A DNA stretch of 32,000 bases from Nostoc sp. PCC 7120 = FACHB-418 (GCF_000009705.1 NC_003273.1:23415-55414); one strand, 5' to 3'. Shown: positions 6,295 to 29,488, counted from the first letter of the stretch. Program-made: numbers and translations. Notes: a model not told the origin generated them from the sequence alone.

Positions 6295-6305
6295 GAGTAC
6301 ACCTA

Positions 6306-7300: not shown

Positions 7301-7315
7301 GATCTGAATAAAAAT

Positions 7316-7567: not shown

Positions 7568-7635
7568 CGCAGAGGTCTGTTAAGTATACAGTAATTGTTT
7601 AAAAGTACTCACATTCCAAGCATCGGCTGATTTAT

Positions 7636-7818: not shown

Positions 7819-8117
7819 GTAATAAATACTTGCTTAAACTAGGCGTAGATATAGCGTAGCTGACACCAGGGGGAAGATAGTCTGGAAACTATGCTATATC
7901 TACGTTATAGCTTTTTGAGATTGAACTAGAATTTCTGCATGAATACACTGATACTTTTTACTCAATAATTGCTTCTTGCCTACCAAAGAGTGAGCGTATT
8001 TCTTTAAAACCGATATTTCACCCACAGTCCACATTATCCTTTAAGTGACACAAAGCACAACTCTGATAAAATCAGGATTTGACTTAAATATCAAAAAACC
8101 TACTTTGAATAATTAAA

Positions 8118-8834
8118 ATGAGCAAGCTGCCAACTCTTTCTCAAACTGTCAATACTGTTGTCACCAGTATGACAGCATTTATTGTTTTAGCTACAGTTAC
8201 TACAACACCTGCTGTTGCTGCTTTATTCAACTTCAAATTTGATGGCACATTAACTGGTTCTGACCCATTTGGCACTGCGGCAACAGTTTTCGGACTCAAG
8301 GGTAGTTTTGTTATAGATGCTGACGTTGCTAACTCATCTACTACTCCAATTGCCGGCAGATATAATGGAGCTATTAAAGATTTAAAGCTCACATTCGCTA
8401 GTACACCTACTCGTAATGCAGTAACGTTGAGTACAGCGAATTTTACAAGCGGAACTAATCGTAATCAAATATTTGTAGGCCCAAGGGGGACAAGAGAAGA
8501 GTTGCAATTTTTAGTTGGCAATGTTGGCTCTGCGCCTCCTTTTTTCTTACCTGACTCTTTTGGAATCATCTTTACTAACACTGACTTACCTTTAACTACT
8601 CAACTCAAAGAAGTTTTGATTCCAGCAAGCAGTACATTTACGGGTCAATTTAAGTTAACTTTGTCTGATGACCAAATTGCCACTCCTAACAATGATTTTT
8701 CCGGCTCATTGACTATCACTCCTGTCAGTGTCCCAGAGCCTAAAACAAACACTGCATTAGTTTTATTAAGTTTAGGATTTACCTACTACTGCTGGTTGAA
8801 GCAATTACGACCTATTAATCCCAAAACTTTGTAA
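8118..8834 (+). CDS. secreted PEP-CTERM sorting-domain protein
   Basis: N-terminal signal-like hydrophobic stretch. C-terminal VPEP + hydrophobic span + basic tail (VPEPKTNTALVLLSLGFTYYCWLKQLR). Confidence 0.8.
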   Translation: MSKLPTLSQTVNTVVTSMTAFIVLATVTTTPAVAALFNFKFDGTLTGSDPFGTAATVFGLKGSFVIDADVANSSTTPIAGRYNGAIKDLKLTFASTPTRNAVTLSTANFTSGTNRNQIFVGPRGTREELQFLVGNVGSAPPFFLPDSFGIIFTNTDLPLTTQLKEVLIPASSTFTGQFKLTLSDDQIATPNNDFSGSLTITPVSVPEPKTNTALVLLSLGFTYYCWLKQLRPINPKTL

Positions 8835-10935: not shown

Positions 10936-11955
10936 TCACTCAGAATTCTTCAACATAAGAGTCAATAATTCCGACATTTCCCACAAATCTTTATTCCGGT
11001 TATCGTCATAAATCATCAGCGTCCTGGGGTCAGCATGACGGCTCAATTTCTGCACCTTTCTAATATTCCCATCAGTAGCATCAAGCGCCGCCGTAATCGC
11101 CGAATGCCTCACCCTGTGCGGTGACATCGGTTTCTTCACCCCCGCCTTTTTAAAAGCTGCCGACACGATTTTATAGATAGCATCCGTAGTCAATCTATGC
11201 CCAGAGTTATGAAAATCTAACGCCGTAAAAATCGGTAAATCGGGTTTCAAATCCCCTCGCGCAATTAACCAATCAGCAAGAGCCGCCGCCACATCTTTGG
11301 ACATATCCAAATATTCTTCATTCGTTCCCTTACCCTTACCCAAAACCCGCAACTTGCGACCATAAAAATCAAAGTCACCCACATTTAACTGACATATCTC
11401 CTGGCGACGCAAAGCTAAACCCCACAGCACTAAAAAAATTGCATAGTTGCGCTTACCAATCAAAGTCTCCCTATCAAATTGCTGTAACACCAGTGCTATC
11501 GTCTTGCTATCAACCCCCCGCGTATCCCGATAAGCCTTGACCTTTTCTCCTTCGACATCTTCCAGGGAATAGTTGCACACCCCCAGCTTGCGCCCCATCT
11601 TCGCCAAGGACTTAAGCGCCGCCAACCGCCGATTAATTGTTGCCTCCCGCACTCCAGAGGCTATCAATTTCGCCTTGTACTTCAGCACCACCATCACCGC
11701 TTGCTCTCGCTGCAAGTGCAGAAACTCCAACACACTATCACCAGTCGGCGGCAACAGAGTCATCTTCACAAAGAAATCCCTTAAATCTTTCTCGTAAGCA
11801 CGCCGAGTATTGGGGTTGCGTTTATCTGCCAACAGTTGGGCCAACACATCTGGGTCTTTGTCAAGTTGTGCATCAAAATATCGCGCGATCGGTGCATCTA
11901 AACACGCCTCTAACTCTACCTTGACTAATTCCCCCCAAACCGGCTCGTTAGGCAT
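10936..11955 (-). CDS. tyrosine recombinase / phage-type integrase
   Basis: Core-binding N-terminal domain plus catalytic residues in context (ALRRQEI, HRVRHSAIT, LSRHADPRTLMIYD). Confidence 0.9.
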   Translation of the reverse strand: MPNEPVWGELVKVELEACLDAPIARYFDAQLDKDPDVLAQLLADKRNPNTRRAYEKDLRDFFVKMTLLPPTGDSVLEFLHLQREQAVMVVLKYKAKLIASGVREATINRRLAALKSLAKMGRKLGVCNYSLEDVEGEKVKAYRDTRGVDSKTIALVLQQFDRETLIGKRNYAIFLVLWGLALRRQEICQLNVGDFDFYGRKLRVLGKGKGTNEEYLDMSKDVAAALADWLIARGDLKPDLPIFTALDFHNSGHRLTTDAIYKIVSAAFKKAGVKKPMSPHRVRHSAITAALDATDGNIRKVQKLSRHADPRTLMIYDDNRNKDLWEMSELLTLMLKNSE

Positions 11956-14859: not shown

Positions 14860-15354
14860 TTAATTAAGACGATTAGCAACAATCTCTATTAATTTTGCTA
14901 TTTCATCAGGGTTAGCATCCTCTGAAGGGATAATAGATATTAAAGATAGAGAATGGTTATCCAGAACTCTCTGCGTGTGAACTGGAAGATTAGCGTAAGT
15001 GTATCCGTTTAATTCTGTCTTAATTTCTAACCCGCTTAAAGCTAATTGATTACTGTAAAAATCTACAATTGCTTTTAACCTTTGTTTACCATCAATCACT
15101 TCGTATGTATGATATGACATCTCGTAGAGAACAATTGGCATTACAGGTAAATTAAGAATAAAAGATTCAATTAGCTGAGATTTTTTAACATCATCCCAAT
15201 CAAGATTAGATTGACTATCTGCATCAATCCTTATGTAATTAGGATTAGACCTAATATTTTCAACTAATCTTGGTAGCTTTACCCTATCTAATTCTTGAGA
15301 TAATCTGTTTAGACCAGATTCATATTTGGCGTTAATTTCATCGTTATTCATCAT
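14860..15354 (-). CDS. short stand-alone DUF262 (ParB/GmrSD N-terminal-like) protein
   Basis: VIDGKQRLKAIVDFY matches the DGQQR signature of DUF262. At 164 aa there is no C-terminal nuclease (DUF1524) domain. Confidence 0.65.
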   Translation of the reverse strand: MMNNDEINAKYESGLNRLSQELDRVKLPRLVENIRSNPNYIRIDADSQSNLDWDDVKKSQLIESFILNLPVMPIVLYEMSYHTYEVIDGKQRLKAIVDFYSNQLALSGLEIKTELNGYTYANLPVHTQRVLDNHSLSLISIIPSEDANPDEIAKLIEIVANRLN

Positions 15355-15906: not shown

Positions 15907-16741
15907 CCATTACTAGAACTGGCTCAATCCAGACTAATTTTCTTTGCTGTGGACTTTCTGCGTCCGGTTGATTACTTAATAAGCCCCTGCGCCAATTGAC
16001 ACTTTTAGTATCATGTGTACGACTATTAACTTCAGTAATTTGCGTCCCTTCACGTTTAAGCTTATATCCTCGTCCAAGCCAAAGTGGTTGATAAAAATCT
16101 TGTGCTTGCGCTTTGCCAAAACCTTTATTTACCATGACTTTTTCGCTTGTTGTATCTATAAATTCAGGGCGACACTCCATAATCAAAATTAGTCGAAGGA
16201 TGATTGAGTGTAAATACTCATTAAATCCTTTAACTACCTTGGGATCTATATCTTGAGAATCAGTATAATAAAGTTTTTGTGCATCAAGTTTAAATCGGCG
16301 GCAAAAGGCACTAGACCCATCGGTGGCTGTCCAATAAAGGATGTCTGCTTCACTATCGTAATTCCAAAAAATAGCATCAACGCTATTATTTTCAGGAGAA
16401 AAAATTACACCTTTAGGTAGCATAAATATTCCCGTTCTCATTGCCCAGTTTATACTATCAATTTCGACGGTTAAAACTGATTGTAGCAACGCTTCTAATA
16501 AATCTTTGTTCACCCAATATGCTGGGCATTTGGCTTGACCGACTTTTAACAAGGTGTATAGGGTGATGTACCTCGATTCTGTGGGATTGATTCTTATTTG
16601 ATACAGTAGCTTTTGTTCCTCCACAGAGTAATAAATATCAGCAACAAAACTGCAAATTTTCTCATAGCTTTCATAACCGTCTACATGAACAACGGGACGA
16701 ATAACAATGTCTTTATACCAACCTTTGGGTTTTTTACTCAT
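15890..16741 (-). CDS. hypothetical protein (283 aa), coupled to the upstream HNH gene
   Basis: ATGA stop/start overlap with the 16738..17706 gene. No motif recognised. Confidence 0.65.
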   Translation of the reverse strand: MSKKPKGWYKDIVIRPVVHVDGYESYEKICSFVADIYYSVEEQKLLYQIRINPTESRYITLYTLLKVGQAKCPAYWVNKDLLEALLQSVLTVEIDSINWAMRTGIFMLPKGVIFSPENNSVDAIFWNYDSEADILYWTATDGSSAFCRRFKLDAQKLYYTDSQDIDPKVVKGFNEYLHSIILRLILIMECRPEFIDTTSEKVMVNKGFGKAQAQDFYQPLWLGRGYKLKREGTQITEVNSRTHDTKSVNWRRGLLSNQPDAESPQQRKLVWIEPVLVMGGKES

Positions 16742-17706
16742 GCAGCACGCCTTAAAAACTGATCACGATGCCATTGTAGAGAATCTCGCCTTGGATAATA
16801 CTGCTCTTGGGCAGGTAAGATTATGCGATCGCCGCTAAACTCCCTCATTGGTTTAGCGTTGGGTGATTCTTCCCGTAGGCTGTTAGAGACGATGATAGTG
16901 TAATCATCATCAATGCTGAACCAAAAACGGTCAAATGCCCAATGATGATTTTTGCACAGTGCCAGCCCATTATCGATGCGGTCATCGTAGAACTGCGAGA
17001 ATGGTTTGATGTGTGACCCATCTACAATGTTCTGTCCGAGTGAGTCAAGTATCTGCAATCCGCAGAATGCACAACGGTAGTTATAAGTTGAAACTACAAT
17101 TTTACGGAATGCACCATCTCGCACAATTACAGCTTGCTCATCTTCTAGTTCTTCTGGCTGATAAACTTTACCACCAGTGCGTTGCAACTGGTCTTGTAGT
17201 TCAGCAAAGGCGTTGACTTGCAATAACGGCTCTATATCCTCCTGTGTAAGCTCATTAAACCAGGAGTCAATCAAAACATGAGTTAGTACAGTTCTGTCTT
17301 GGTGATTTTGGAGCAGTAACCAGAGTTCATCATCAAGGTAGGCGTACTCTACTGTTTCTCTGATGGTGCTAGGAGTCCTAATTTTTATTTTGGCTTTCAT
17401 CCATCCCTCAAATCCCAGTTTCATTTGGTAATGCCAAAAGCGATCGCTGGTCAGGTGATAGAAAGGTAAACCTATATCTGGCTTACGTAGTGGCTCCAGG
17501 TGGCTCCATAGTTTAAGAAACGTGGCGATAAGTTCAGCATTGAAGGGGATTTGGTTTTTGGTGATCTGCCTCGTTGCTATCATTTCGATGACAGACAGCA
17601 GCAAAATGGGCTTATTTGGTGCGCCAGGGCTAACGTTTAAACCTATTTTGTTTGATGCGGATTTAGGAGAAAATTTCTTAACGTAGTAAGCTAAATCTTT
17701 ATTCAT
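16738..17706 (-). CDS. HNH_2-type nuclease with N-terminal putative DNA-sensing domain
   Basis: YNYRCAFCG...DGSHIKPF...NGLALCKNHHWAFD matches the HNH_2 pattern. The N-terminal NKPILLLSVIEMI...FYHLTSDRFWH resembles sensor domains fused to type IV restriction HNH enzymes. ATG at 17706 preferred over 17745. Confidence 0.8.
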   Translation of the reverse strand: MNKDLAYYVKKFSPKSASNKIGLNVSPGAPNKPILLLSVIEMIATRQITKNQIPFNAELIATFLKLWSHLEPLRKPDIGLPFYHLTSDRFWHYQMKLGFEGWMKAKIKIRTPSTIRETVEYAYLDDELWLLLQNHQDRTVLTHVLIDSWFNELTQEDIEPLLQVNAFAELQDQLQRTGGKVYQPEELEDEQAVIVRDGAFRKIVVSTYNYRCAFCGLQILDSLGQNIVDGSHIKPFSQFYDDRIDNGLALCKNHHWAFDRFWFSIDDDYTIIVSNSLREESPNAKPMREFSGDRIILPAQEQYYPRRDSLQWHRDQFLRRAA

Positions 17707-17714
17707 TTGCAGCC

Positions 17715-17972
17715 ATGCGCGAATATCGATGTACACGTAACGCATTATACTTACACGACTGCATAGGTCGAGATGACCTTAGAGAACGCCAAGGTCATTA
17801 TATTTGGGCAATCAACGAAGAAGCTGCATGGCAAGAAATGGCGCGGCGGTATCCAGATGAAACTGAGGCTGGGTTTACTGTGGAGGAGTGGGAAAGTTTT
17901 GATGTAAAGGTGGTAGAAGTGAAACGTGATCAGAATGGGAACATTATAGATGAAAACTCTGAATTGGATTGA
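17715..17972 (+). CDS. hypothetical protein (85 aa)
   Basis: ATG ORF divergent from the HNH_2 gene, with only 8 nt between the two starts. Confidence 0.45.
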   Translation: MREYRCTRNALYLHDCIGRDDLRERQGHYIWAINEEAAWQEMARRYPDETEAGFTVEEWESFDVKVVEVKRDQNGNIIDENSELD

Positions 17973-18405
17973 TAAATCTGCATGGGCAGACGGTGAATGG
18001 CAGCAAGAACCAGACCGAATTGAATGGGTTTATCTGGGATTCCCTTGTTTAATAGTCAGGCAAGACCCAGGTTTTTTGTGTGGCTATGTGGGTATTCCTC
18101 CAACTCATCCTTATTATGGTAAGGATGGCACAAACAACGAATTAAGGTGCATTCAAGTTCATGGAAAAATTACGTTTTCTGAAGCATCTCACCAAAGTAA
18201 TGACCCCAAAGCAGTTTGTCATCAACTATTACCAATAACTGATAATTATTGGTGGATAGGGTTTGACTGTACCCATAGCGAAGATATTTCTCCAATTATT
18301 GTGAATATTTTTAATTATAGGGATGCTACATATAAAAATTTAGAATTTGTCAAAAATCAAGTTGAATATTTGGCACAGCAATTAAGTACCTTGAAAACAG
18401 AATAG
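17950..18405 (+). CDS. hypothetical protein (151 aa)
   Basis: Overlaps the upstream ORF by 23 nt. Conserved-looking core GYVGIPPTHPYYG...VHGKITF...WWIGFDCTHSED. Confidence 0.6.
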   Translation: MKTLNWIDKSAWADGEWQQEPDRIEWVYLGFPCLIVRQDPGFLCGYVGIPPTHPYYGKDGTNNELRCIQVHGKITFSEASHQSNDPKAVCHQLLPITDNYWWIGFDCTHSEDISPIIVNIFNYRDATYKNLEFVKNQVEYLAQQLSTLKTE

Positions 18406-18408
18406 ATT

Positions 18409-19572
18409 ATGTCATCAGGCAGCATCATTATTAGCACAATTCTCAAACACGATACTAAAGTAACAAGCTACAAAATCGCCTTGTTACGTGCCATTAATGA
18501 TGTCGTCCTCAGCTTCCCTGATTTGCGGAAAACGAACGCGGATGTAGCTGTGCCTTTACGGGTACTGGCTCAGTTTTGGATTGCTTATTACTGGCCTTTT
18601 GTCAAACCAAGTGACCCTATTTTGCAAGGACAACGAGCAATAGTTAATGGTCAATTGCGAAATGATATCTTGTTTCGCCCTCAACTAGAGAAATTACGCT
18701 GTGAATGGGAATCAGGTGTTAGTGGAATCTTCAGCCCTAGCGATGGCTTTTACCTCATCAACGAGCTGAGAGTACCGCGAAAATATCAAGGCTACTCAAA
18801 ACCGTTACGTCAAGCCTATCAAGTTGCTCTCACAGCCATTAGTAAAGCAATTGAGCAGCCAGTTAAATATGCAGGGCTTGGTCACTGGAGTGTATTTGAT
18901 AAACCCTTAAGGTATGCAGAACAAAGCTATCAAGTTGTAGCAGTTCCTGGTACTAAAGCAGATGATAAATGCTTAATAATTAAAGCTGATCTGTGGCAAA
19001 CTTTTGGGGATATGTCATTGTGGATTGAAGCACTTTGCATTCATGAATGGTGTTTGTTCACAGAGAAATTACAACAGAAAAATCACTCAAAAGTGCATCG
19101 AGGTTGCATTTATGAGTTGTTAACAGATAGACCTGACAATCGCAGACCTTTAACTTGGGAACGTAACAATGTAGATTTACTGTTAATGGAAGGTACAGAG
19201 TTTGTTTGCCCTTGGACAAAAAAGCACATTTCTTATGGCATCAGGTACGATTTAGACCACCTTTTACCCGTATCTCTCTACCCCATCAATGAACTTTGGA
19301 ACTTAGTACCTGCTGACCCTAATTTCAATTCACACACCAAGCGCGATCGCTTACCTTCTCAGGCAAAATTGCAACAAGCTCAACCCTCTTTAGAGTTAGC
19401 TTACAGAAACTACAGCACATCTAGTTCACTGTCTCTAGCACTCCAAGAAGATGTGGCTGTCAGATTTGCTACTATCTTCGGTGATACTGCTTGTTTTCCT
19501 GGTGTACTATCAGCTGCTGTTGTTGATCTCATTGATGTTTTTGCTGAATCTCGTAACTTAGCTCGTTTTTGA
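18409..19572 (+). CDS. HNH nuclease (387 aa) with large unknown N-terminal domain
   Basis: The C-terminal DLDHLLPVSLYPINELWNLVPADPNFNSHTKRDRLP carries an HNH-like D-H...N...N pattern. The N-terminus has SYKIALLRAINDVV. Starts 3 nt after the upstream stop. Confidence 0.8.
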   Translation: MSSGSIIISTILKHDTKVTSYKIALLRAINDVVLSFPDLRKTNADVAVPLRVLAQFWIAYYWPFVKPSDPILQGQRAIVNGQLRNDILFRPQLEKLRCEWESGVSGIFSPSDGFYLINELRVPRKYQGYSKPLRQAYQVALTAISKAIEQPVKYAGLGHWSVFDKPLRYAEQSYQVVAVPGTKADDKCLIIKADLWQTFGDMSLWIEALCIHEWCLFTEKLQQKNHSKVHRGCIYELLTDRPDNRRPLTWERNNVDLLLMEGTEFVCPWTKKHISYGIRYDLDHLLPVSLYPINELWNLVPADPNFNSHTKRDRLPSQAKLQQAQPSLELAYRNYSTSSSLSLALQEDVAVRFATIFGDTACFPGVLSAAVVDLIDVFAESRNLARF

Positions 19573-20675: not shown

Positions 20676-20766
20676 TAAATTTTAAATTTCGCATTATCTA
20701 CTATACTGAATTAAAAATTGTCATCTTACTATTAATTAGCAATATATATTGTACGCCTTATGTGAA

Positions 20767-21489
20767 TTAAGCCAGAGGATGCTGTTCAAAAGTAAGCACA
20801 TCAATACCAAAACGCTGACGCAAAAAAATGCGTAGAGTATGACTGGTGATTTTAGCGGTAACATGAACGCACAGAGCATCAACTTTCTTTCTCAGCAGAC
20901 GTTCCAAATTACGTCCGGTATTTTGTACCTCGTTAAAGACTCCTTCAATACGCTCACGCAGGCTGTTTAATAAACTCTCAAACGCTTTTGGCTGTTGTTG
21001 AAGTTGGTTGGCTCGTTTGGGAGTGAAAATTTGATTGCCGGTGATTTTGGAAATATCACTCTGCCATTCGCCACCAATAAATCCTTTATCTGCAAGGATA
21101 CGACAGCCATGAACACGGTCTAAAACTGATTCGGCTGCTAGACGTTCATCAGTACTAGCTGGCACTAAAGAGTAAACTAGGGGTATGCCGTTGAGGGTAC
21201 TGATGAGTACCAATTTGTAGCCAAAATAGTTCATTTTTCGACTGGCACACCACCCATAATCAGCACTGCCAGTAAAATCACTTTGGCGTTTGTCACGTTT
21301 GTAGCCAACTACTGGTACTGGTTTTGTGTCTAACAAAAGTGTGGTCTCAAAGATTGCCCCTAAGTCAACAACCCAGAAACGTCTTAGTTCTTCCAGCATT
21401 CCTTCCAAGCGTCTGGCTCTTCGGTTAAACTGGCTTTGGTCTAACAATTTCGGGAATAGGCTCAAATAGTTTGCTCTGACGAACCCTAA
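20767..21489 (-). pseudogene. IS982-family transposase, C-terminal fragment
   Basis: LGFVRANYLSLFPKLLDQSQFNRRARRL..LLLDTKPVPVVGYKR..YGWCASRKMNYFGYKLVLISTLNGIPLVYSLVPASTDER is typical IS982 DDE context. Confidence 0.8.
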
Positions 21490-21490
21490 A

Positions 21491-22007
21491 TGTAACGACC
21501 TGCAATGCTAATCGCTCAGACCTGCAATCATCACTGTTTTCAGCCAGGATTAATTGCAACTATAATTTCATTTGAACCAGGATTAAATGCAACTGAGCCA
21601 GGATTATTTGCAACCAACCTGCAATCATCGGTTTGAGCCAGGATTATCTGCAACTATAAAAGTAAAAAAAACGAACGGTTTTTTAACTGCGTCACCAGTA
21701 AGGCTTAGAGTTACTTTTACCGTTGGTTTTTAAGTAAAAAAACTCGGTAAAGAATTCAAAGTTAATTTATAAAATTCTCAAATGAGTTTTTTGACAAACT
21801 CCTGTCAAGGAGAGAAAACTTAGTCATAGTAAAGTGTTGAGCTTATTTGCAATTAATCCTGGTCGAAACGGATGATTGCAGGCTGGTTGCATTTAATCCT
21901 GGCTCAGTTGCAGTTAATCCTGGTTCAAATGAAATTATAGTTGCAATTAATCCTGGCTGAAAACAGTGATGATTGCAGGTCTGAGCGATTAGCATTGCAG
22001 GTCGCTA
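21491..22007. mobile_element. MITE-like non-autonomous element with about 165-bp inverted arms
   Basis: Arms at 21491-21660 and 21843-22007 are mutually inverted at about 90 percent identity. Each arm holds about 7 copies of two motifs, CCTGCAATCATC and CCAGGATTAWWTGCAAC. No ORF. Target duplication CCTAAA (21485-21490 and 24497-24502). Confidence 0.65.
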
Positions 22008-22604
22008 GTGTGATTCGTTCTGTCGAAACGAGTAGAAATATTCGGGGATGACAGGCAAGGGAAATATTCGGGAGAAATTCCGACAGAACCTTGACAACTC
22101 AATTTTTCGTGATGGTGAAATTCCATCCCTCCAAGTGCAGGAGTGAAAGCAAGTCCCCCATTTCAGCAAAAGTGGTTCTTTGTTGGGATGAAGCGGGGAA
22201 TCATGGCGGTAACTGCAAGCCTAATGTGGAATCCCGCCTAGCATAGCTGGTCATGGATAGTCAAACGAATCTCTTGATTGAATCATCGTTATGCAAAACA
22301 AGCCAAAAGGCTGACAGGCTTGTCCCAAAAGGGAAAAGATTAGTGGTTGGCTGATTAGCGACAGACCAATAAGCACTCACAATAAACTCGGTGAAGAGAG
22401 AGAGTCCTAAAACCAACGTCAAACGAAAAATTGGGAACGAAGTAACCCCCTAATGTACTCTCCAAAACTGGTCGAACTTTGGAGTAGGTAGCCAACCGGA
22501 AGTCATCAGGGGGAGGGATTGCCTCAGAAGCGAATGCCTCCTTGTAACGAGAAGGATATGCAGACGGAGGCACGGTGACTTGGATTGTAGAGGTGCAAGT
22601 AGCA

Positions 22605-24377
22605 ATGTATACATCTAAAACGAGTTTCAAGACTACGGTGGAATGGAATGCTATCCCCTGGCAAAAGCTAGAAAGGAAAGTATTTAAGTTACAAAAGCGC
22701 ATCTACAAAGCCTCGCAGCGTGGCGATGTCAAAGCAGTTCGTCAACTCCAAAAAACGTTGTTGCACTCCTGGTCAGCAAAGTGTTTAGCGGTTCGTCGGG
22801 TAACACAGGACAACCGAGGTAAGAAGACGGCAGGAGTGGATGGGCGGAAAAACCTCTCCCCAAAAGCACGTCTCATCTTAGTACAATCCATGAAGCTAGG
22901 TGATAAAGCCTCTCCCACCCGCAGGGTGTGGATTCCGAAACCTGGCTCATCAGGCGAAAAAAGACCCCTTTCTATACCCACTCTATACGACCGCGCCTTG
23001 CAATCGCTAGTAAAACTAGCCTTAGAACCCGAATGGGAAGCTCGCTTCGAGCCAAACTCGTTTGGTTTTCGACCTGGAAGAAACGCCCATGATGCAATGA
23101 AGGCAATATTCAACACTATTAAGTTCAAACCTAAATATGTTTTGGATGCTGATATTGCAAAATGTTTTGACAAAATTGATCATAATGTTCTGCTGTCAAA
23201 ATTAAATACATTCCCCACCATCAGCCGACAAATTCGTGCATGGTTAAAAGCGGGAGTGATTGATTTCTCCGAATATGCTTTGAGGGAGAAATCTGACCAC
23301 ACAACATCGATGGGTGTTCCACAAGGGGGTACAATTTCGCCGCTATTAGCGAATATAGCCCTCCACGGCATGGAAAACCGAATTAAACAAGTTGCTCTAA
23401 CCTTACCCGGATGTAAATCTGAGAATCGTCAAGCAATAAGCTTAATCAGATTTGCAGATGATTTTGTCATCCTGCACAAAGACCTCGCCGTTATCCAAAG
23501 ATGTCAGCAGATTATTAGTGAATGGTTAAGCGAGTTGGGGCTGGAATTGAAGCCAAGTAAAACCCGAATATCCCATACACTTAATATGTATGAAGGTAAG
23601 GTTGGTTTTGATTTTCTAGGTTTCACTGTTCGACAATTTCCTGTAGGAAAATATCACAGTGGTAAAAGCTCAAGTGGAAAATTACTTGGTTACAAAACTC
23701 TGATTACCCCAAGTAAAGCAAAGCTGAAGATACACGCGCAGAAGATAGGTAAATTGATTGATGAGCATAAGGCAGTACCACAATCTGATTTAATCGCTCA
23801 TTTGAATCCCGTCATCCGTGGATGGACAAACTACTACTCATGTGTCGTCAGTAAACGCATATTTAACCAGGCTGATACAACATTATTTAGTCAGCTAAAA
23901 GCATGGGCAGAACATCGTCACCCTAATAAATCTTCCCGATGGAGTTGTCAAAAGTATTGGCAAACCGTAGGGTCTGATAATTGGGTATTTAAACCCCATA
24001 ACCAGAAAATTCGCCTACTCAAGCACCGTGAAACTCGCATTGTGAGACACATACAGGTGAAAGGAAGCCGTAGCCCGTTTGATGGTGACTGGGTGTACTG
24101 GAGTTCCAGAATGGGTAAACATCCCGAAGCCCCAATCAGGGTGGCAACACTCCTGAAAATGCAGAAAGGAAAGTGTACTCACTGTGGACTGTTTTTTCAC
24201 CATGAAGATTTGATGGAAATCGACCATAAAATCCCCCGCTCTCAAGGCGGTAAGGATAGTTATGACAACCTTCAATTACTTCATGGACATTGCCATGATG
24301 CTAAAACGGCAGAAGATAAATGTGCTGTTACAGTTCCAGAGCTAGATGAGGATTATCTCAACCTTAATCCCTTTTAA
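22605..24377 (+). CDS. group II intron reverse transcriptase/maturase with HNH endonuclease domain
   Basis: WQKLERKVFKLQKRIYKA N-terminus, RT motifs including FADDFVIL, an X/maturase region (RGWTNYY), and a C-terminal CTHCG..DHKIPRSQGG..NLQLLHGHCH. Confidence 0.9.
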   Translation: MYTSKTSFKTTVEWNAIPWQKLERKVFKLQKRIYKASQRGDVKAVRQLQKTLLHSWSAKCLAVRRVTQDNRGKKTAGVDGRKNLSPKARLILVQSMKLGDKASPTRRVWIPKPGSSGEKRPLSIPTLYDRALQSLVKLALEPEWEARFEPNSFGFRPGRNAHDAMKAIFNTIKFKPKYVLDADIAKCFDKIDHNVLLSKLNTFPTISRQIRAWLKAGVIDFSEYALREKSDHTTSMGVPQGGTISPLLANIALHGMENRIKQVALTLPGCKSENRQAISLIRFADDFVILHKDLAVIQRCQQIISEWLSELGLELKPSKTRISHTLNMYEGKVGFDFLGFTVRQFPVGKYHSGKSSSGKLLGYKTLITPSKAKLKIHAQKIGKLIDEHKAVPQSDLIAHLNPVIRGWTNYYSCVVSKRIFNQADTTLFSQLKAWAEHRHPNKSSRWSCQKYWQTVGSDNWVFKPHNQKIRLLKHRETRIVRHIQVKGSRSPFDGDWVYWSSRMGKHPEAPIRVATLLKMQKGKCTHCGLFFHHEDLMEIDHKIPRSQGGKDSYDNLQLLHGHCHDAKTAEDKCAVTVPELDEDYLNLNPF

Positions 24378-24420
24378 CTCTGAACTTAGAGGTGTGCATG
24401 ATAAGCACCAAATCATTGAG

Positions 24421-24454
24421 GAGCCGTGTGAAATTAACGTTTCACGCACGGTTT
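24421..24454 (+). ncRNA. group II intron domain V
   Basis: GAGCCGTGTGAAATTAACGTTTCACGCACGGTTT is a 34-nt hairpin with the AGC triad and a 2-nt bulge geometry like the DV consensus. Confidence 0.8.
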
Positions 24455-24496
24455 TGTAGCCGAGTCAGGGAGGTGACTTTCTGGCTTAGGCATCCA

Positions 24497-24687
24497 CCTA
24501 AAAACTGCTGTTCTCCTGGGTATGGAAAAAAATCCATTGCTACCAACAAAGTTAACATCTCACTATCTGTGAATCTCGGCGATGGCCCTGGCAATAACGG
24601 TACATAACGGTAGCCTTTTTGCTGATACCAATCATCTACTAGCACAAAAATTGTCGTCAACAGGGTCGAACCGTCTACCATATTCAT
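24497..24687 (-). pseudogene. IS982-family transposase, N-terminal fragment
   Basis: MNMVDGSTLLTTIFVLVDDWYQ...FTDSEMLTLLVAMDFFPYPGEQQFLG joins in frame to the fragment at 21489 once the insertions are removed. Confidence 0.8.
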
Positions 24688-24776
24688 TGGGAGACCTCAA
24701 GCTTTGGTGTCGTTACCTTTATCTTGCGGTTTCCCCTTCTTTTTTACTACCCCAACTCACATAAGCCGTACTTTAT

Positions 24777-24892: not shown

Positions 24893-25636
24893 ATGATTAT
24901 CGCATTGGCAAATCAGAAAGGAGGGGTAGCAAAAACTACTTCTACTATCTCTCTAGGAGGACTGCTGGCTCTTAAAGATACTGTCCTGGCTGTTGACCTT
25001 GACCCTCAAGGTAATCTGACTACAGGGCTGGGGGTGGAAGTGGCTGATGACCAAATTAGCTGCTACGACGTTATTACAGAGAAAGCAGAAGTCATCGATG
25101 GAGTAGTTTCTACTAAATTTGGACTTAGCTTATTGCCTGCTGACATCAACTTAGCTAAGGGAGAAACAGAAATGCTTATGAAGGTAGGTAACTTCTCCAT
25201 CCTTAAAGAGCGACTGACTCCCGTACTCAAGCAATTCCATCACATCTTAATTGACTGTCCACCTTCTTTGGGACTATTAACGGTTAATGCCTTAGCTGCT
25301 GCGGATGCAGTTCTTATCCCAGTACAGTGTCAATTTTTCGCTTTAAAAGGGTTGGCTGCACTGTTGGAAACAGTTGCAAGTGTTCAGAAACGTCTTAATC
25401 CCCAATTACAAATACTGGGAGTCTTGCCAACAATGGCTGAAAATACCGTCATGACTCAAGATGTCTTAGCCTCCTTAAATAAGAGACTACAAAACATTCG
25501 GATATTTGAACCTGTTCCAAAGTCAATCAAGTTTTCTGAGTCAAATTTAGCTGGTGAGCCAATTCACATCTATGCTAAAGACCCCAAGCTGGTGCAGCCT
25601 TACCAGATTATCGCTAATTTAATTGCTGCAATCTAA
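24893..25636 (+). CDS. parA: ParA/Soj-family partition ATPase
   Basis: Deviant Walker A at the N-terminus (ANQKGGVAKTT), DLDPQGN, and ILIDCPPSLG. Confidence 0.9.
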   Translation: MIIALANQKGGVAKTTSTISLGGLLALKDTVLAVDLDPQGNLTTGLGVEVADDQISCYDVITEKAEVIDGVVSTKFGLSLLPADINLAKGETEMLMKVGNFSILKERLTPVLKQFHHILIDCPPSLGLLTVNALAAADAVLIPVQCQFFALKGLAALLETVASVQKRLNPQLQILGVLPTMAENTVMTQDVLASLNKRLQNIRIFEPVPKSIKFSESNLAGEPIHIYAKDPKLVQPYQIIANLIAAI

Positions 25637-25641
25637 TTAAG

Positions 25642-26355
25642 GTGAAAAGACAGATGACAAAACGACGCGCCAGATTAAATGACGATAATGATCCGTTGTC
25701 TTCGACCGATAAAGTGTTAGCTGGGTTTGAGCAAATTAGCAAGTCAGCAAGTCAGCAAGATAAAGTGTCAACCAGCAGGGAAGCTGACAAGTCAACAAGT
25801 CAACAAGAGAAGTTACCAACTAGTCAACAATCTGACAAGTTAAACAGTAAGGAAGCTAACAAGTCAGCAAGTCAGCAAGACATATCACCAACCAATCAAC
25901 AATCTGACAAGTCAACCAGTCAGCAAGATGTAGCCTTAACTACCCAGGAAGCTGACAAGTCAGCAAGTCAACAAGACATATCACCAACCAATCAACAATC
26001 TGACAAGTCAACCAGTCAGCAAGATGTAGCCTTAACTACCCAGGAAGCTGACAAGTCAGCAAGTCAACAAGACATATCACCAACCAGTCAACAATCTGAC
26101 AAGTCAACCAGTCAGCAAGTTAATATAGAAAAAGTTTCATTGCGTAAATCTACGTTTCAAATTAGTGAAGATGTACTGCATCAGCTAGACAAACTGCACC
26201 TTACACTCCAGTTAGAGCTAGGAAAAGCTCATGCTCCTTATAAGGAAGTAATTGTAGAAGAAGCTTTAGTACAACTGTTAGAGTCGTTTAACTCTGATCG
26301 TGCAGCTTTGATAGAAGTATTGATGTCAAGGCAGAAAAGCCGTGACAAACTTTGA
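25642..26355 (+). CDS. repeat-rich partition partner, C-terminal ribbon-helix-helix-like segment
   Basis: Starts 6 nt after parA. The N-terminal two-thirds is S/Q/D/K repeats. The C-terminal KSTFQISEDVLHQLDKLHL resembles an RHH beta-strand and helix. Confidence 0.6.
   Translation: MKRQMTKRRARLNDDNDPLSSTDKVLAGFEQISKSASQQDKVSTSREADKSTSQQEKLPTSQQSDKLNSKEANKSASQQDISPTNQQSDKSTSQQDVALTTQEADKSASQQDISPTNQQSDKSTSQQDVALTTQEADKSASQQDISPTSQQSDKSTSQQVNIEKVSLRKSTFQISEDVLHQLDKLHLTLQLELGKAHAPYKEVIVEEALVQLLESFNSDRAALIEVLMSRQKSRDKL
25861..26119 (+). repeat. 2.7 copies of a 96-bp in-frame tandem repeat
   Basis: Units at 25861-25956, 25957-26052 and 26053-26119 are nearly identical (KSASQQDISPTNQQSDKSTSQQDVALTTQEAD). 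Degenerate copies run from about 25741. Confidence 0.9.
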
Positions 26356-26580: not shown

Positions 26581-26586
26581 TTAAGG

Positions 26587-26661
26587 GGTGTCAGACGGGA
26601 CTTGAACCCGTTATGACTGGTTCCACAAACCAGCGCCGCGACCGCTTTGGCTTCAGACACC
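26587..26661 (-). tRNA. tRNA-His(GUG)
   Basis: Extra G-1 opposite C73. Anticodon arm CTGGT-TTGTGGA-ACCAG. T arm ACGGG-TTCAAGT-CCCGT. One acceptor mismatch. Confidence 0.8.
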
Positions 26662-26666
26662 AAAAG

Positions 26667-26740
26667 TGGAATCAAGGGGATTTGAACCCCTAACCTCCCG
26701 CTTGCAAGGCGGACGCTCTAGCCAGTTGAGCTATGACCCC
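26667..26740 (-). tRNA. tRNA-Ala(UGC)
   Basis: GGGGTCA acceptor with G3:U70. Anticodon loop CTTGCAA. A73. Confidence 0.85.
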
Positions 26741-26746
26741 AGACAG

Positions 26747-26818
26747 CAGGAGTGAAGGGACTTGAACCCCTACAAATCGATTTAGAAGATCGATGCCCAT
26801 CCATTAGGCGACACTCCC
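26747..26818 (-). tRNA. tRNA-Arg(UCU)
   Basis: Anticodon arm TCGAT-CTTCTAA-ATCGA. T arm AGGGG-TTCAAGT-CCCTT. Confidence 0.85.
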
Positions 26819-26824
26819 ATAAAT

Positions 26825-26900
26825 TGGTAGCCCTGACAGGATTTGAACCCGCTACATCCTCTTTGTAAGAGAGGCACTCTACCAATTGAGTTACAGGGCT
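26825..26900 (-). tRNA. tRNA-Val(UAC), CCA encoded
   Basis: Acceptor AGCCCTG/CAGGGCT. Anticodon arm CCTCT-CTTACAA-AGAGG. Ends in ACCA. Confidence 0.9.
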
Positions 26901-26905
26901 AAAAG

Positions 26906-26976
26906 AGCGATCGACGAGACTCGAACTCGTACCGTGAGTTTGGAAGACTCTGATGCTGCCGTTACACCACGATCGC
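26906..26976 (-). tRNA. tRNA-Gly(UCC)
   Basis: Acceptor GCGATCG/CGATCGC (a HIP1 palindrome). Anticodon loop CTTCCAA. U73. Confidence 0.85.
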
Positions 26977-26984
26977 ATTATTCA

Positions 26985-27056
26985 AGCTGGTGACAGGAGT
27001 TGAACCCGCAACCGATCGCTTACAAGGCGATTGCTCTGCCGTTGAGCCACACCAGC
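26985..27056 (-). tRNA. tRNA-Thr(UGU)
   Basis: Acceptor GCTGGTG/CACCAGC. Anticodon arm ATCGC-CTTGTAA-GCGAT. Confidence 0.9.
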
Positions 27057-27059
27057 ATT

Positions 27060-27137
27060 TGGTAGCGGAGCCGGGATTTGAACCCGGTACGTGAAGGCTT
27101 ATGAGACCCCAGAGCGCACCATAGCTCTATCTCCGCG
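27060..27137 (-). tRNA. tRNA-Met(CAU), initiator-like acceptor, CCA encoded
   Basis: The 5' CGCGG start gives a C1-U72 mismatch, then A73 and CCA. Anticodon loop CTCATAA. Extra nucleotides at the 8-9 or variable region. Confidence 0.65.
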
Positions 27138-27139
27138 AG

Positions 27140-27213
27140 TACCCCTGACAGGATTTGAACCTGTAGAAAACCCGTTTTAAGCAGGTCATGTCTGCCAATT
27201 GCATCACAGGGGT
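27140..27213 (-). tRNA. tRNA with Leu anticodon UAA but a short variable arm
   Basis: Acceptor ACCCCTG/CAGGGGT, A73. Leu-like D region TGATGCAATTGGCAGACAT. Anticodon arm ACCTG-CTTAAAA-CGGGT. Only a 5-nt variable loop. Confidence 0.7.
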
Positions 27214-27219
27214 AAAATT

Positions 27220-27295
27220 TGGTGGGGTATACAGGAGTCGAACCTGTCTAAGTCGGATTAAAAGTCCGATGCACTTGCCGCTATGCCAATACCCC
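27220..27295 (-). tRNA. tRNA-Lys(UUU), CCA encoded
   Basis: Acceptor GGGGTAT/ATACCCC. Anticodon arm TCGGA-CTTTTAA-TCCGA. Confidence 0.9.
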
Positions 27296-27336
27296 ATACA
27301 CAAGGGCGTTATTTATCCGCTCTGCCAACGACCCAA
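27296..27336 (-). pseudogene. possible tRNA 5'-half remnant
   Basis: GGGTCGTTGGCAGAGCGGATAAAT... has an acceptor/D-arm-like start but no T arm or 3' acceptor strand. Confidence 0.2.
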
Positions 27337-27337
27337 T

Positions 27338-27415
27338 TGGTACTCCCGACAGGAGTTGAAAGAGTAAAAATTTCGTCCCTCAAACGGAAGCGTTTACCAA
27401 TTTCGCCACGGGAGC
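27338..27415 (-). tRNA. tRNA-like, Leu anticodon GAG, short variable arm, disrupted T stem (probable pseudogene)
   Basis: Acceptor GCTCCCG/CGGGAGT, then A and CCA. Anticodon loop TTGAGGG. The 5' T-stem strand ACTCT cannot pair with CCTGT. Confidence 0.45.
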
Positions 27416-27435
27416 ATAGTTAGGCAATTGCCCAG

Positions 27436-27509
27436 TACCCTTGACAGGAGTTGAACCTGCAACAAACCCGGTCTAAGCGGGCTACGTCTGCCAATTGCGT
27501 CACAAGGGC
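27436..27509 (-). tRNA. tRNA with Leu anticodon UAG but a short variable arm
   Basis: Paralogue of 27140-27213. Acceptor GCCCTTG/CAAGGGT, A73. Anticodon arm GCCCG-CTTAGAC-CGGGT. 5-nt variable loop. Confidence 0.7.
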
Positions 27510-27512
27510 AAA

Positions 27513-27589
27513 TGGTCGGGATGGTAGGATTTGAACCTACGACTCCTTGTCCCCAAAACAAGGCTTCTAGACCACTGAATTACATCCCG
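27513..27589 (-). tRNA. tRNA-Pro(UGG), CCA encoded
   Basis: Acceptor CGGGATG/CATCCCG. Anticodon arm CTTGT-TTTGGGG-ACAAG (G37). Confidence 0.9.
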
Positions 27590-27597
27590 ATATTACT

Positions 27598-27675
27598 TGG
27601 TACTCCTGATGGGATTTGAACCCATACACAGACTGTTTTTGAAACAGCCGCCTCTGCCAATTGGGCTACAGGAGT
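27598..27675 (-). tRNA. tRNA with Leu anticodon CAA but a short variable arm, CCA encoded
   Basis: Acceptor ACTCCTG/CAGGAGT, A73. D region GCCCAATTGGCAGAGGC. Anticodon arm GCTGT-TTCAAAA-ACAGT. 5-6 nt variable loop. Confidence 0.7.
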
Positions 27676-27703
27676 ATAATTTGTCTGCTTTATCAAAGCA
27701 GAA

Positions 27704-27778
27704 CTGGGAAGGCAGGAATCGAACCCGCGAGATCCTGAGCCAAAATCAGGTGGCTTTGCCAACGTCGCCTACTTCCCA
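27704..27778 (-). tRNA. tRNA-Gln(UUG)
   Basis: U1:A72 and G73. Anticodon arm CCTGA-TTTTGGC-TCAGG. Confidence 0.85.
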
Positions 27779-27783
27779 ATAAA

Positions 27784-27860
27784 TGGCTGCCGAGGTAGGG
27801 TTTGAACCTACAAACTCCTGTTTCAGAGACAGGTGACTCTACCAATTCGTCTACTCGGCA
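27784..27860 (-). tRNA. tRNA-Gln(CUG), CCA encoded
   Basis: U1:A72 and G73. Anticodon arm CCTGT-CTCTGAA-ACAGG. Confidence 0.85.
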
Positions 27861-27865
27861 ATTAA

Positions 27866-27940
<75 letters not shown>

Positions 27941-27949
27941 ATGTGCCAG

Positions 27950-28023
27950 TCCCCCAGATCCGGATTGAACGGATGACCTCCTGTTCTTCAAACAGGCGCT
28001 ACTACCAACTGAGCTACCAGGGG
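27950..28023 (-). tRNA. tRNA-Phe(GAA)
   Basis: Anticodon arm CCTGT-TTGAAGA-ACAGG. T arm ATCCG-TTCAATC-CGGAT. A73. Confidence 0.9.
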
Positions 28024-28028
28024 ATAGG

Positions 28029-28102
28029 CGAGAACGGAGGGACTTGAACCCCCAACCTTCAGGTTCGTAATCTGAGATGCAATCCAGTTACACCACGTTC
28101 TC
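28029..28102 (-). tRNA. tRNA-Arg(ACG)
   Basis: Acceptor GAGAACG/CGTTCTC. Anticodon loop TTACGAA. 3' flank is CCT. Confidence 0.85.
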
Positions 28103-28108
28103 ATAAGG

Positions 28109-28196
28109 CGGAGAGAGAGGGAGTTGAACCCACAGTGAGATGATGAATCTCACGACTGTTTAGCAAACAGCTTGCCCTGCCAATAGCAATCTCTCC
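28109..28196 (-). tRNA. tRNA-Ser(GCU)
   Basis: Acceptor GGAGAGA/TCTCTCC. Anticodon arm GCTGT-TTGCTAA-ACAGT. Long variable arm CGTGAGATTCATCATCTCACTG. Confidence 0.85.
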
Positions 28197-28200
28197 ATAA

Positions 28201-28285
28201 TGGGCCGAGTAGGATTTGAACCTACGAAGCACAGAGGCATCCGTTTTACAGACGGCTTCCTTCAACCGGACTTGGATACCGACCC
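28201..28285 (-). tRNA. tRNA-Tyr(GUA)
   Basis: Anticodon loop CTGTAAA. Long variable arm. T arm GTAGG-TTCAAAT-CCTAC. A73. Confidence 0.85.
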
Positions 28286-28324
28286 AAATCAATGTCCACT
28301 TGATAGAAATACATCTACAAGGGA

Positions 28325-28405
28325 TGGAGTGAAGGGGAATCGAACCCCTATCCAGCAAGCGTCCGTTTGTTGGTTTCGTTGCTGTCGATCACCATTCGTC
28401 ACCCC
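28325..28405 (-). tRNA. tRNA-like gene of undetermined identity (canonical acceptor/T arm, aberrant core)
   Basis: Acceptor GGGGTGA/TCACTCC with G3:U70 and A73. T arm AGGGG-TTCGATT-CCCCT. The centre folds as a shifted D hairpin plus an about 10-bp extended arm with loop AACAAAC. Confidence 0.4.
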
Positions 28406-28411
28406 ATGAGG

Positions 28412-28485
28412 CAGTGCAGACGGGACTCGAACCCGCTAATTACACGCTTGAAAGACGTGCCGCTCGACCACTTCGCTTCTGCACC
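28412..28485 (-). tRNA. tRNA-Glu(UUC)
   Basis: Acceptor GGTGCAG/CTGCACT. Anticodon arm CACGT-CTTTCAA-GCGTG. 3' flank is CCT. Confidence 0.8.
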
Positions 28486-28515
28486 ATGTATGCCGTGTAA
28501 GTTGAAAAGCTGTTG

Positions 28516-28586
<71 letters not shown>

Positions 28587-28591
28587 ACATT

Positions 28592-28669
28592 TGGAAGCCT
28601 CGACGGGAGTTGCACCCGCTCCTCCGTGCTTGAGAGGCACAGCGACTTATCTTATTTGTCCACAAGGCT
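28592..28669 (-). tRNA. tRNA-like, anticodon CUC (Glu), atypical D and T loops, CCA encoded
   Basis: Acceptor AGCCTTG/CGAGGCT, then T and CCA. Anticodon arm TGTGC-CTCTCAA-GCACG. The D loop lacks GG and the T loop is TGCAACT instead of TTC. Confidence 0.5.
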
Positions 28670-28672
28670 ACA

Positions 28673-28749
28673 CGGGGATGATGGGATTTGAACCCACGGT
28701 ATGAAAGCTCGACAGGCGACTGCTTTAAACCGGACTAAGCTACACCCCC
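28673..28749 (-). tRNA. tRNA-Asp(GUC)-like with weak anticodon stem
   Basis: Acceptor GGGGGTG/CATCCCC, G73. D arm GCTT/AAGC. Anticodon loop CTGTCGA. The anticodon stem has only 2-3 pairs. Confidence 0.55.
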
Positions 28750-28835
28750 ACGTTGGGTGGCAATTATTTAGTTTTCATGGTTCTGAGGTGTTTGCTCTAT
28801 GCCTTGTTGAGAGGCTGTAGTGCTTCACTACATAT

Positions 28836-28951: not shown

Positions 28952-29488
28952 TTACTCAGATTCACTCAGGCGTTGTGCGTTCCAGAATTGTTCAGCAAAT
29001 GCAACTGCTGGGTGAATCGGGGCTTTGGGCCTGTTTTTCAGTACCATTCCCGCTTCATGCGGCAAGCGATCGCTCTTGGTTGAGTTGCATTTTTCACACG
29101 CTGTGACAACGTTGTCCCAGGTATGCTGTCCACCCTTTGAGCGGGGAATTACATGGTCAAGCGTTAAATGCTTGGTGCTACCGCAGTATTGACAGGTGTG
29201 ATTGTCTCGTCTCAAAACTTCACGACGGTTTACAGGCGGTACTTTCCAATGACGTTCGGGATTGCCAACGGTTAAGCGGATGTGTTCAGGTACTTGTAGT
29301 ACAACACTGGGAGAACGTACTTCCCACTGTTTTGTAGTACCAAAATTCAACGATTCAGCCTGACCCGTGACTAACAGCACGATTGCTCGTTTGATATTGA
29401 TGCGTGCTAATGGTAAGTAGTTTTTGGAGAATACTACGACTGAATTTTGTAGTATTTGGGATTGCTGAAAAGGTGGTTGAGCTTCCAT
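28952..29488 (-). CDS. HNH endonuclease (178 aa, McrA-like)
   Basis: HTCQYCGSTKHLTLDHVIPRSKGGQHTWDNVVTACEKCNSTK. Confidence 0.85.
   Translation of the reverse strand: MEAQPPFQQSQILQNSVVVFSKNYLPLARINIKRAIVLLVTGQAESLNFGTTKQWEVRSPSVVLQVPEHIRLTVGNPERHWKVPPVNRREVLRRDNHTCQYCGSTKHLTLDHVIPRSKGGQHTWDNVVTACEKCNSTKSDRLPHEAGMVLKNRPKAPIHPAVAFAEQFWNAQRLSESE

Follow-up and report, generated by a model that had tools for sequence, protein, structure and literature searches.

A probable three-level nest of mobile elements in Nostoc sp. PCC 7120, with a group II intron in the tip of a Tn552-like miniature transposon

Nested Organization of the Locus

The 32,000-nt stretch of plasmid DNA from Nostoc sp. PCC 7120 = FACHB-418 analyzed here (GCF_000009705.1, NC_003273.1:23415-55414; hereafter the window) holds, between positions 20751 and 24771, what are very probably three nested mobile elements: an insertion sequence (IS) of the IS982 family, a miniature transposon (the mini-element) inserted in its transposase gene, and a group II intron that homed to the tip of the mini-element. 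Nested mobile elements and group II introns inside mobile elements are well known already, but no description was found in the literature searched of this pairing of intron and target, a Tn552-like tip, or of the cyanobacterial transposon family to which the tip belongs. The anatomy of the locus, its internal boundaries, the pairings between intron and target, and the recurrence of the arrangement at other loci were directly observed. In window coordinates, the components are:

20751-24771, transposase on the minus strand: IS982-family IS, the outermost layer, delimited by inverted repeats and reconstruction
24497-24687, minus strand: N-terminal part of the transposase gene, residues 1 to ~66 (MNMVDG...EQQFLG), with the open reading frame (ORF) starting at 24687
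20767-21490, minus strand: C-terminal part of the transposase gene, FVRANYLSLFPK... to the stop codon at 20767
21485-21490: left target duplication CCTAAA, made by the mini-element and fitting NNTANN
21491-22007: miniature non-coding Tn552-like element, all but its last 2 bases, beginning TGTAACGACC
22008-24494, plus strand: group II intron, 2,487 nt, GTGTG...GGCATC, antisense to the transposase
22213-22218, plus strand: exon-binding site 2 (EBS2) CTGCAA, complement of intron-binding site 2 (IBS2) TTGCAG at 21995-22000
22356-22362, plus strand: EBS1 TAGCGAC, complement of IBS1 GTCGCTA at 22001-22007
22605-24377, plus strand: intron-encoded protein, 590 aa from ATG (600 aa from GTG at 22575)
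24420-24455, plus strand: intron domain V, matched by RF04357 and RF00029 just below their gathering scores
24459-24491, plus strand: intron domain VI, whose branch-point A (24488, 6 nt from the intron end) is bulged; the tail AUC follows at 24492-24494
24495-24496: terminal CA of the mini-element, cut off from the remainder by the intron, as judged from empty tips and intron 3′ junctions
24497-24502: right target duplication CCTAAA, which with the left copy flanks mini-element and intron together

Once the 3,012-bp insert is taken out, the IS measures ~1,005-1,009 bp and is bounded, in a repeat search of the window, by 18-bp terminal inverted repeats (20751-20768 and 24754-24771; 16/18 matching), although comparison with an internally deleted copy in Nostoc N6 (L005) indicates that the true ends are likely ACG...CGT, at 20753 and 24769. 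Joining 21490 to 24503 on the minus strand, with 21491-24502 deleted, produces ...EQQFLGFVRANYLSLFPK... and a 302-aa ORF with no stop. The rebuilt transposase reaches 172.6 bits on the NCBIfam profile NF033520 (IS982), above the cut-off of 130, through a single stretch of residues 40-282 that spans the join at residues 66/67, and its C-terminal part matches Pfam DDE_Tnp_1 and DDE_Tnp_1_3. Among plasmids searched with tblastn, an intact annotated IS982 transposase in Nostoc sp. C052 covers residues 1-301 in one piece, and BLASTP aligns the two proteins at 57% identity, gap-free at the join (GEQQFLGFVRANYLSLFPKLLDQSQFNRR versus GETQFLGFIRGNYFEWFPNLLDQSQFNRR). The profile score above cut-off and the gap-free homologue across the junction hence assign the IS to the IS982 family. 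The original prediction, made from the sequence of the window, had named this family, had described a frame continuing past EQQFLG across a clean insertion flanked by a CCTAAA duplication, and had staked itself on the existence of intact homologues with the joined sequences contiguous. All of this was borne out, since both copies of the duplication were located, removal of the insert restores the ORF, and the Nostoc C052 transposase runs through the join. The predicted positions were likewise exact, save for the 3′ end of the intron, which was off by 1 nt.

The window IS agrees with the IS982 family in its transposase, which lies above the hidden Markov model cut-off, and in its ~1-kb length, 18-bp terminal inverted repeats and single DDE ORF; it differs in that the nearest intact copy found, that of Nostoc C052, is just 57% identical, and in that no end duplication is seen here. 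An empty IS982 target site was sought and not found, the nearest plasmid, from Nostoc sp. MS1, matching only to the right of the IS. The copy in Nostoc N6, on plasmid pNPM1 (L005 2001-2604), is a ~600-bp internally deleted relative of the same IS with TATAC flanks, indicating that the IS has a miniature form of its own. Directly to the right of the window IS lies a ParA gene (24893-25636), and the interval 24893-26355 also holds a 237-aa protein composed largely of SQQ/KST-type repeats that, following ParA, may be its partner or a centromere-binding protein.

A Miniature Derivative of a Tn552-Like Transposon

The mini-element totals 519 bp and is non-coding. Its inverted arms (21493-21656 and 21844-22007; 164 nt, 93% complementary) contain four CCAGGATTAATTGCAAC repeats each, or eight matches in all against 0.16 in shuffled sequence, together with three ACCTGCAAT motifs in each arm, and its only ORFs are mirrored ones of 43-50 aa inside the arms. 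In megablast searches of plasmids, uninterrupted copies were found in Nostoc ATCC 53789 and Fischerella NIES-4106 (L001, L002). Five copies carry 6-bp duplications (CCTAAA, GGTATC, CGTAAA, GGTACT and GCTATT), and TA occupies flank positions 3-4 in nearly all copies, which defines the NNTANN pattern. The mirror-image ORFs of the arms (MLIAQTCNHHCFQPGLIATIISFEPGL...), at 21505-21636 on the plus strand and 21843-21995 on the minus strand, are a by-product of the inverted repeat; in Fischerella, one of them has been annotated as encoding a hypothetical protein (L002 2864-3106).

Megablast matches to the arms alone proved to be both ends of 3.6-3.9-kb elements on cyanobacterial plasmids, which represent the autonomous parent of the mini-element:

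L007 16310-20163: autonomous parent in Calothrix PCC 6303
L006 4628-8254: autonomous parent in Nostoc UHCC 0870
L011 6363-10158: autonomous parent in Anabaena cylindrica PCC 7122

The multi-repeat ends of these parents span ~165 bp, and their arms are 85-89% identical to those of the window. Their genes encode, in order, a serine resolvase, a 548-aa DDE protein and an AAA_22 ATPase (annotation of L007 and L011; Pfam Resolvase and AAA_22), the same gene order as in Tn552 on pMW2. The resolvase is 52% identical to Tn552 BinL, and the DDE protein aligns with Tn552 p480 at 30% identity over 140 aa (E 3.5e-8). Tn552 generates 6-bp repeats and has inverted repeats of ~120 bp (PMC3276174). The likeness hence extends from the resolvase-DDE-ATPase order, the resolvase and the DDE core to the long multi-repeat inverted ends, the 6-bp duplications and the location of copies near plasmid par and recombinase genes, while the cyanobacterial parent differs in lacking bla cargo, in an ATPase with no detectable sequence similarity to p271, in arms of ~165 bp and in its cyanobacterial host. 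The parent DDE protein has no PDB homologue by sequence. Membership in Tn5053/Tn402 (TniABQR) was also considered and rejected, given an E value of 0.59 against R751 TniA, the absence of a TniQ gene and duplications of 6 bp instead of 5.

Being small and non-coding, with inverted arms, a target duplication and ends in common with an autonomous element, the insert has the defining properties of a miniature inverted-repeat transposable element (MITE). The MITE identity first proposed was thus both substantiated, by uninterrupted copies with 6-bp duplications, and refined, in that the element is a derivative of a Tn552-like transposon. It is extremely improbable that the inverted-arm element is instead a cis-acting site of the plasmid, such as a centromere, resolution site or set of iterons close to parA. 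An array of short repeats does lie near parA (24893-25636), and further copies are also found near par and recombinase genes, but a cis-acting site would account neither for the precise interruption of a transposase frame with a 6-bp duplication, nor for the four additional copies that have duplications of their own, nor for the occurrence of the same ends around transposition genes. The precise insertion, the duplications and the ends bracketing transposition genes therefore point to a genuine non-autonomous transposon.

The closest homologues of the parent DDE/ATPase pair (L007 16522-19703), at 55-60% identity, come from proteobacterial plasmids of Salmonella (virulence-type), Klebsiella, Pseudomonas and Ralstonia, where the proteins are annotated just as "IS481 family transposase" and "ExeA family protein." The parent transposon family hence appears to be widespread and unnamed, and on cyanobacterial plasmids the Tn552-like family and its miniature derivatives are poorly annotated, as "IS481 family" or "hypothetical protein." The copies cluster beside par, resolvase and integrase genes, in a manner reminiscent of Tn552, which prefers plasmid res sites (PMC3276174).

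The Group II Intron and Its 3′ Boundary

The innermost layer begins GTGTGATTCG at 22008 and, on its sequence features, can be classified as a chloroplast-like (IIB-type) mobile group II intron. Its encoded protein has RVT_N, RVT_1, GIIM (maturase) and HNH domains in Pfam, carries the FADD active-site motif, and scores 304.8 bits on TIGR04416, above the cut-off of 300. Among solved structures, the TeI4h reverse transcriptase (PDB 6ME0 chain C) is its nearest relative, matched over its full length with an E value of 2.4e-105. The helices of domains V and VI are kept in eight copies, with two compensatory pairs in the alignment fold. The predicted 2.49-kb group II intron, antisense to the transposase, is thus upheld by its GTGTG start, its domains V and VI and its reverse transcriptase/maturase/HNH protein. 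With TeI4h-type IIB introns it shares this protein, the GUGYG start, domain V, a domain VI with a bulged A and targeting through EBS1 and EBS2, and it differs from them in its AUC tail and in a homing site formed by the last 13 nt of a transposon inverted repeat instead of a gene. The exact protein, with the same neighbors, is present on CP183477.1 (GCA_048568275.1, L144) and on four JGI metagenome contigs; an exact look-up returned this locus alone, and a second copy in the source genome was not found.

Empty copies of the transposon end define where the intron stops. Uninterrupted tips all read GGTCG(C/T)TACA followed by the flank (7 in plasmids and 13 in genome contigs, among the matches listed), and none of these ~20 tips, in plasmids or in the matches listed in genome contigs, contains CCA, all reading CTACA. 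Eight intron 3′ junctions (the window, L003, L004, L006, L010, L011, L124 and L135) read GGCAT-C-CA-NNTANN with different flanks. A further calibration is offered by L003, where a second intron (4587-7105) lies inside a copy of the window intron and its bounds are fixed by comparison with the latter. This inner intron has a bulged A, 4 bp and the 3-nt tail ACU, and the window intron, with a bulged A, 3 bp and AUC, has the same A-Y-Y layout only if the C is included. Taken together, the empty tips, the 3′ junctions and the L003 twintron shift the boundary by 1 nt and place the intron end at 24494 (...GGCATC), not at 24493, which makes the split tip GGTCGCTA|CA, by sequence, a normal tip with one mismatch from the left tip. 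The split right terminus that had been predicted therefore stands, but the remaining tip is CA and not CCA, and the intron ends in CATC and not CAT.

Group II introns usually end in AY at the 3′ side, and an intron ending ...GGCAT, with an AU-ending tail that fits this consensus, could have invaded a variant tip GGTCGCTACCA; the Rfam alignment does not settle where the final bases belong. This alternative is unlikely, as CCA occurs in none of the ~20 empty tips (among the matches listed) and in every occupied one, the branch-point A would stand only 5 nt from the splice site, and the L003 inner intron, whose bounds are unambiguous, likewise has a 3-nt A-Y-Y tail. With the end at 24494, the ligated exons would be expected to read GGTCGCTA-CACCTAAA, whereas the end originally predicted would give GGTCGCTA-CCACCTAAA.

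Probable Homing to the Transposon Tip

The 13 nt just upstream of the insertion site pair with EBS1 and EBS2 at 13 of 13 positions (7 + 6) and in the expected order, a result matched in 0.2% of domain I shuffles and by 13 of 4,570 (0.3%) random 13-mers of the window. In a pairwise alignment, the sequence of the L003 inner intron that lines up with EBS1 is TCCTGG, the complement of ...CCAGGA in that intron's own 5′ exon, and this covariation with the 5′ exon fixes the EBS1 assignment. The variant tip GTCGTTA, which can pair with EBS1 via G-U wobble, is also occupied (L009, L138 and L140).

The same tip holds this intron at no fewer than ten other loci (at least ten), with differing flanks and element subfamilies. 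The intron, or fragments of it, is found at the tip on plasmids of Calothrix NIES-4101, Nostoc C057, Nostoc UHCC 0870, Anabaena cylindrica 7122 and two Planktothrix agardhii, and Nostoc KVJ20 has the same intron at the same tip. The arm subfamilies occupied include GAGCGATTAGC (window, L135 and L141) and GGGGGATTTATA (L003, L004 and L124), and empty copies are known for both of these main subfamilies. In an exon-independent test, in which the first 21 nt of the intron were scanned against metagenomes, nine loci were recovered, of which four have this tip and three a diverged related end (TTTGCAGTTCGCTA), while one is degenerate and one unrelated. The diverged end family terminates in ...TTTGCAGTTCGCTA or ...TTCCTTA and carries TTTGCAG/TTTGCGG repeats (L133 1571-1661, L134 120-210 and L137 235-325). 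A scan of a 596-Gb genome collection with the 14-mer ATTGCAGGTCGCTA, too short a pattern for a collection of that size, gave at least 123 matches. Among those listed, 108 were chance-like and only 14 cyanobacterial tips were usable, so that occupancy rates derived from them are rough.

Homing of the intron to the tip of this transposon family is supported by these comparisons, and the proposal that the intron targets the MITE terminus has fared well, with the EBS/IBS derivation giving 13 of 13 pairs with the upstream exon, EBS1 covarying, and the same tip recurring at many independent loci. The search for uninterrupted copies returned an intact IS982 transposase and empty mini-elements from other genomes. 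That different arm subfamilies are occupied, and that empty copies exist, argues for repeated homing rather than for a single inherited composite.

The association of intron and tip could also descend from one old insertion, spread by inheritance and by recombination among element copies instead of homing. In keeping with this, matching duplications are missing from several occupied loci, L004 and L124 combine the same 5′ context with unlike 3′ flanks, and the EBS are degraded in some copies. Such a history is nonetheless very unlikely in view of the perfect 13-bp EBS/IBS match and intact encoded protein of the window copy, the covariation of EBS1 with the exon in a related intron, the spread of hosts over Nostocales and Planktothrix, and the at least eight different 3′ flanks, each with the NNTANN signature, that imply separate element insertions.

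Several occupied loci have features of their own. L003 (Calothrix NIES-4101 plasmid4, 3518-8521) is a twintron, in which the same intron, at the same mini-element tip, is split by a second intron of 2,519 nt and 65% identity, inserted at position 1070/1071 of the outer intron inside the reverse transcriptase gene. Twintrons have been described in the cyanobacterium Trichodesmium (PMC4649490), and the Calothrix NIES-4101 copy resembles them in carrying a second, related intron; here, the outer intron lies in a transposon tip, and the twintron stands at a related locus, not in the window. L004 (Nostoc C057, 2980-5560) and L124 (Nostoc KVJ20, 1-2740) have in common a truncated mini-element and the sequence upstream of it before the intron, and differ in the flanks after the intron (CA-TCTAAC versus CA-GCTATC), a pattern that suggests rearrangement across intron copies. 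Furthermore, truncated 3′ pieces of the intron are present 90-600 bp outside transposon copies that are either autonomous or fragmentary (L006 8850-8950, L011 5001-6273 and L010 4602-5130), and all of them end C-CA-NNTANN.

Order of Events and Proposed Mechanism

The stack would have been assembled in three steps. An IS982-family IS with an intact transposase gene would first have adjoined the plasmid parA. The 519-bp non-autonomous Tn552-like derivative would then have entered the transposase gene and duplicated CCTAAA; its DDE transposase and AAA ATPase must have been supplied in trans from an autonomous copy, since no such copy is present in the 32,000-nt window. The tips of this transposon family read TGT...ACA, and the repeats in the ~165-bp ends are presumed to be transposase-binding sites. 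Lastly, retrohoming would have placed the intron in the right tip, on the top strand between GGTCGCTA and CA, targeted by RNA-DNA pairing of EBS2/EBS1 with TTGCAG|GTCGCTA. This 13-mer is conserved as the tip throughout the transposon family, so that transposon tips probably serve the intron lineage as its homing site. The intron is presumably active.

The order IS, mini-element, intron is the most likely one, and it presupposes that transposition is no longer possible once an end is split 2 nt from the tip, at which cleavage takes place. The intron puts 2.5 kb between the terminal CA and all repeat motifs, and it reads outward through the tip. Transposases of the Mu, Tn7 and Tn552 type cut next to the terminal binding site, and by analogy with them the 2.5-kb split should abolish the use of that end. 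The sequence of three insertions read originally from the window is hence retained as the most likely one, by inference from the disabled split end. If, instead, the intron had entered the mini-element first, the two would have transposed together into the IS982 gene as a 3-kb composite. The composite as a whole is bracketed by the CCTAAA duplication, and sequence alone is silent on whether the intron was present at insertion; moreover, it is the right end that carries the intron in the window and in L003 alike. This course of events is highly improbable, because the terminal CA stands 2.5 kb from the repeat motifs beside which such transposases would be expected to cut, because the intron occurs in different arm subfamilies and in a diverged end family while empty copies of the main subfamilies exist, and because no near-identical composites were found, the mini-elements being ~86% and the introns 89-93% identical. 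The original prediction had also noted that splicing of an intron antisense to the transposase cannot rescue it, which is true yet beside the point, given that the mini-element would stay in the gene anyway.

A number of observations weigh against the nested reading or parts of it. The IS982 copy has no recognizable target duplication of its own within the window, and flank comparison revealed no matching duplications at L003, L009 and L011, which shows that rearrangements also move sequences of mini-element and transposon. The EBS no longer fit the exon in L003 (TAACGAC, CTACTA) or in L137; together, the misfitting EBS and the loci without duplications indicate that decay and recombination have also acted and that some copies do not stem from a recent homing event. 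The 3′ splice site was placed by comparison and from domain VI geometry, and a tail ending in UC departs from the usual AY. A default Rfam scan of the window returned tRNAs only, the group II models surfacing only in a permissive scan, where both remained just below gathering (RF00029, 38.7 bits versus 40, E 3e-5; RF04357, 49.4 bits versus 53, E 2.5e-9) and where the models for domains I-IV gave no match; the covariance check that had been suggested for exact boundaries thus detected domains V and VI, but with scores below gathering and without deciding the last bases. As regards the parent transposon, its ATPase has no significant similarity to Tn552 p271 (E 0.76), its DDE protein yields nothing in Pfam at E < 0.001, with matches to rve and the Mu-transposase C-terminal domain being sub-threshold, and the same protein has no similarity to Tn402 TniA. 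The dissimilar ATPase and the sub-threshold Pfam matches are the reason why the transposon is called "Tn552-like" and not a member of that family.

An Intron Lineage Associated with Transposon Tips

Introns that home in other mobile elements include RmInt1 in ISRm2011-2, Ll.LtrB in a conjugative relaxase gene and the IIC-attC introns at integron attC sites. The intron described here has in common with them a multicopy, horizontally spreading mobile host in which insertion is costless to the cell; its target differs in that the intron enters non-coding DNA at the tip of a DDE transposon, 2 nt away from where cleavage occurs, and should thereby disable the end. A broader scenario, for which the prospects seem evenly balanced, is that the intron lineage is a dedicated hunter of Tn552-like tips across Nostocales and Planktothrix plasmids, recognizing their conserved last 13 nt and also diverged ends, with each homing event freezing the host element in place while the intron still travels on the plasmid, possibly transcribed from the inward-facing promoter of the transposon. 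If this is true, homing would uncouple the tip from the transposase-binding repeats, and the intron would be a parasite of a parasite. In a scan for promoters and terminators, a mirrored TTTTCA-18-TATAAT was found in both arms, at a count no higher than in shuffled sequence. The promoter-like site of the left arm faces inward and could, as a guess, transcribe through the element into the intron, so that transcription into the intron may arise from within the element.

The locus offers a fully resolved, datable stack of three mobile elements, and it brings to light an intron lineage with a transposon tip as its natural homing site that is poorly annotated on cyanobacterial plasmids. Downstream of the intron site, only CA and NNTANN are conserved, and, if homing is confirmed, the system would provide a natural intron-target pair for testing the tolerance of IIB introns to variable 3′ exons, as well as a marker for the history of plasmids and transposons in the Nostocales. 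The current understanding of these element classes is left unchanged.

Other Genes in the Window

The minus strand at 26585-28750 contains 24 densely packed tRNA genes, which together serve most amino acids; 20 of these genes reach the Rfam gathering score. tRNA arrays of this kind are known from Nostocales plasmids. The window also encodes a tyrosine recombinase, a GmrSD_N fragment and three HNH endonucleases (at 10936-11955, 14860-15354, 16738-19572 and 28952-29488), and among the HNH genes two neighboring ones are conserved in several Nostoc plasmids.

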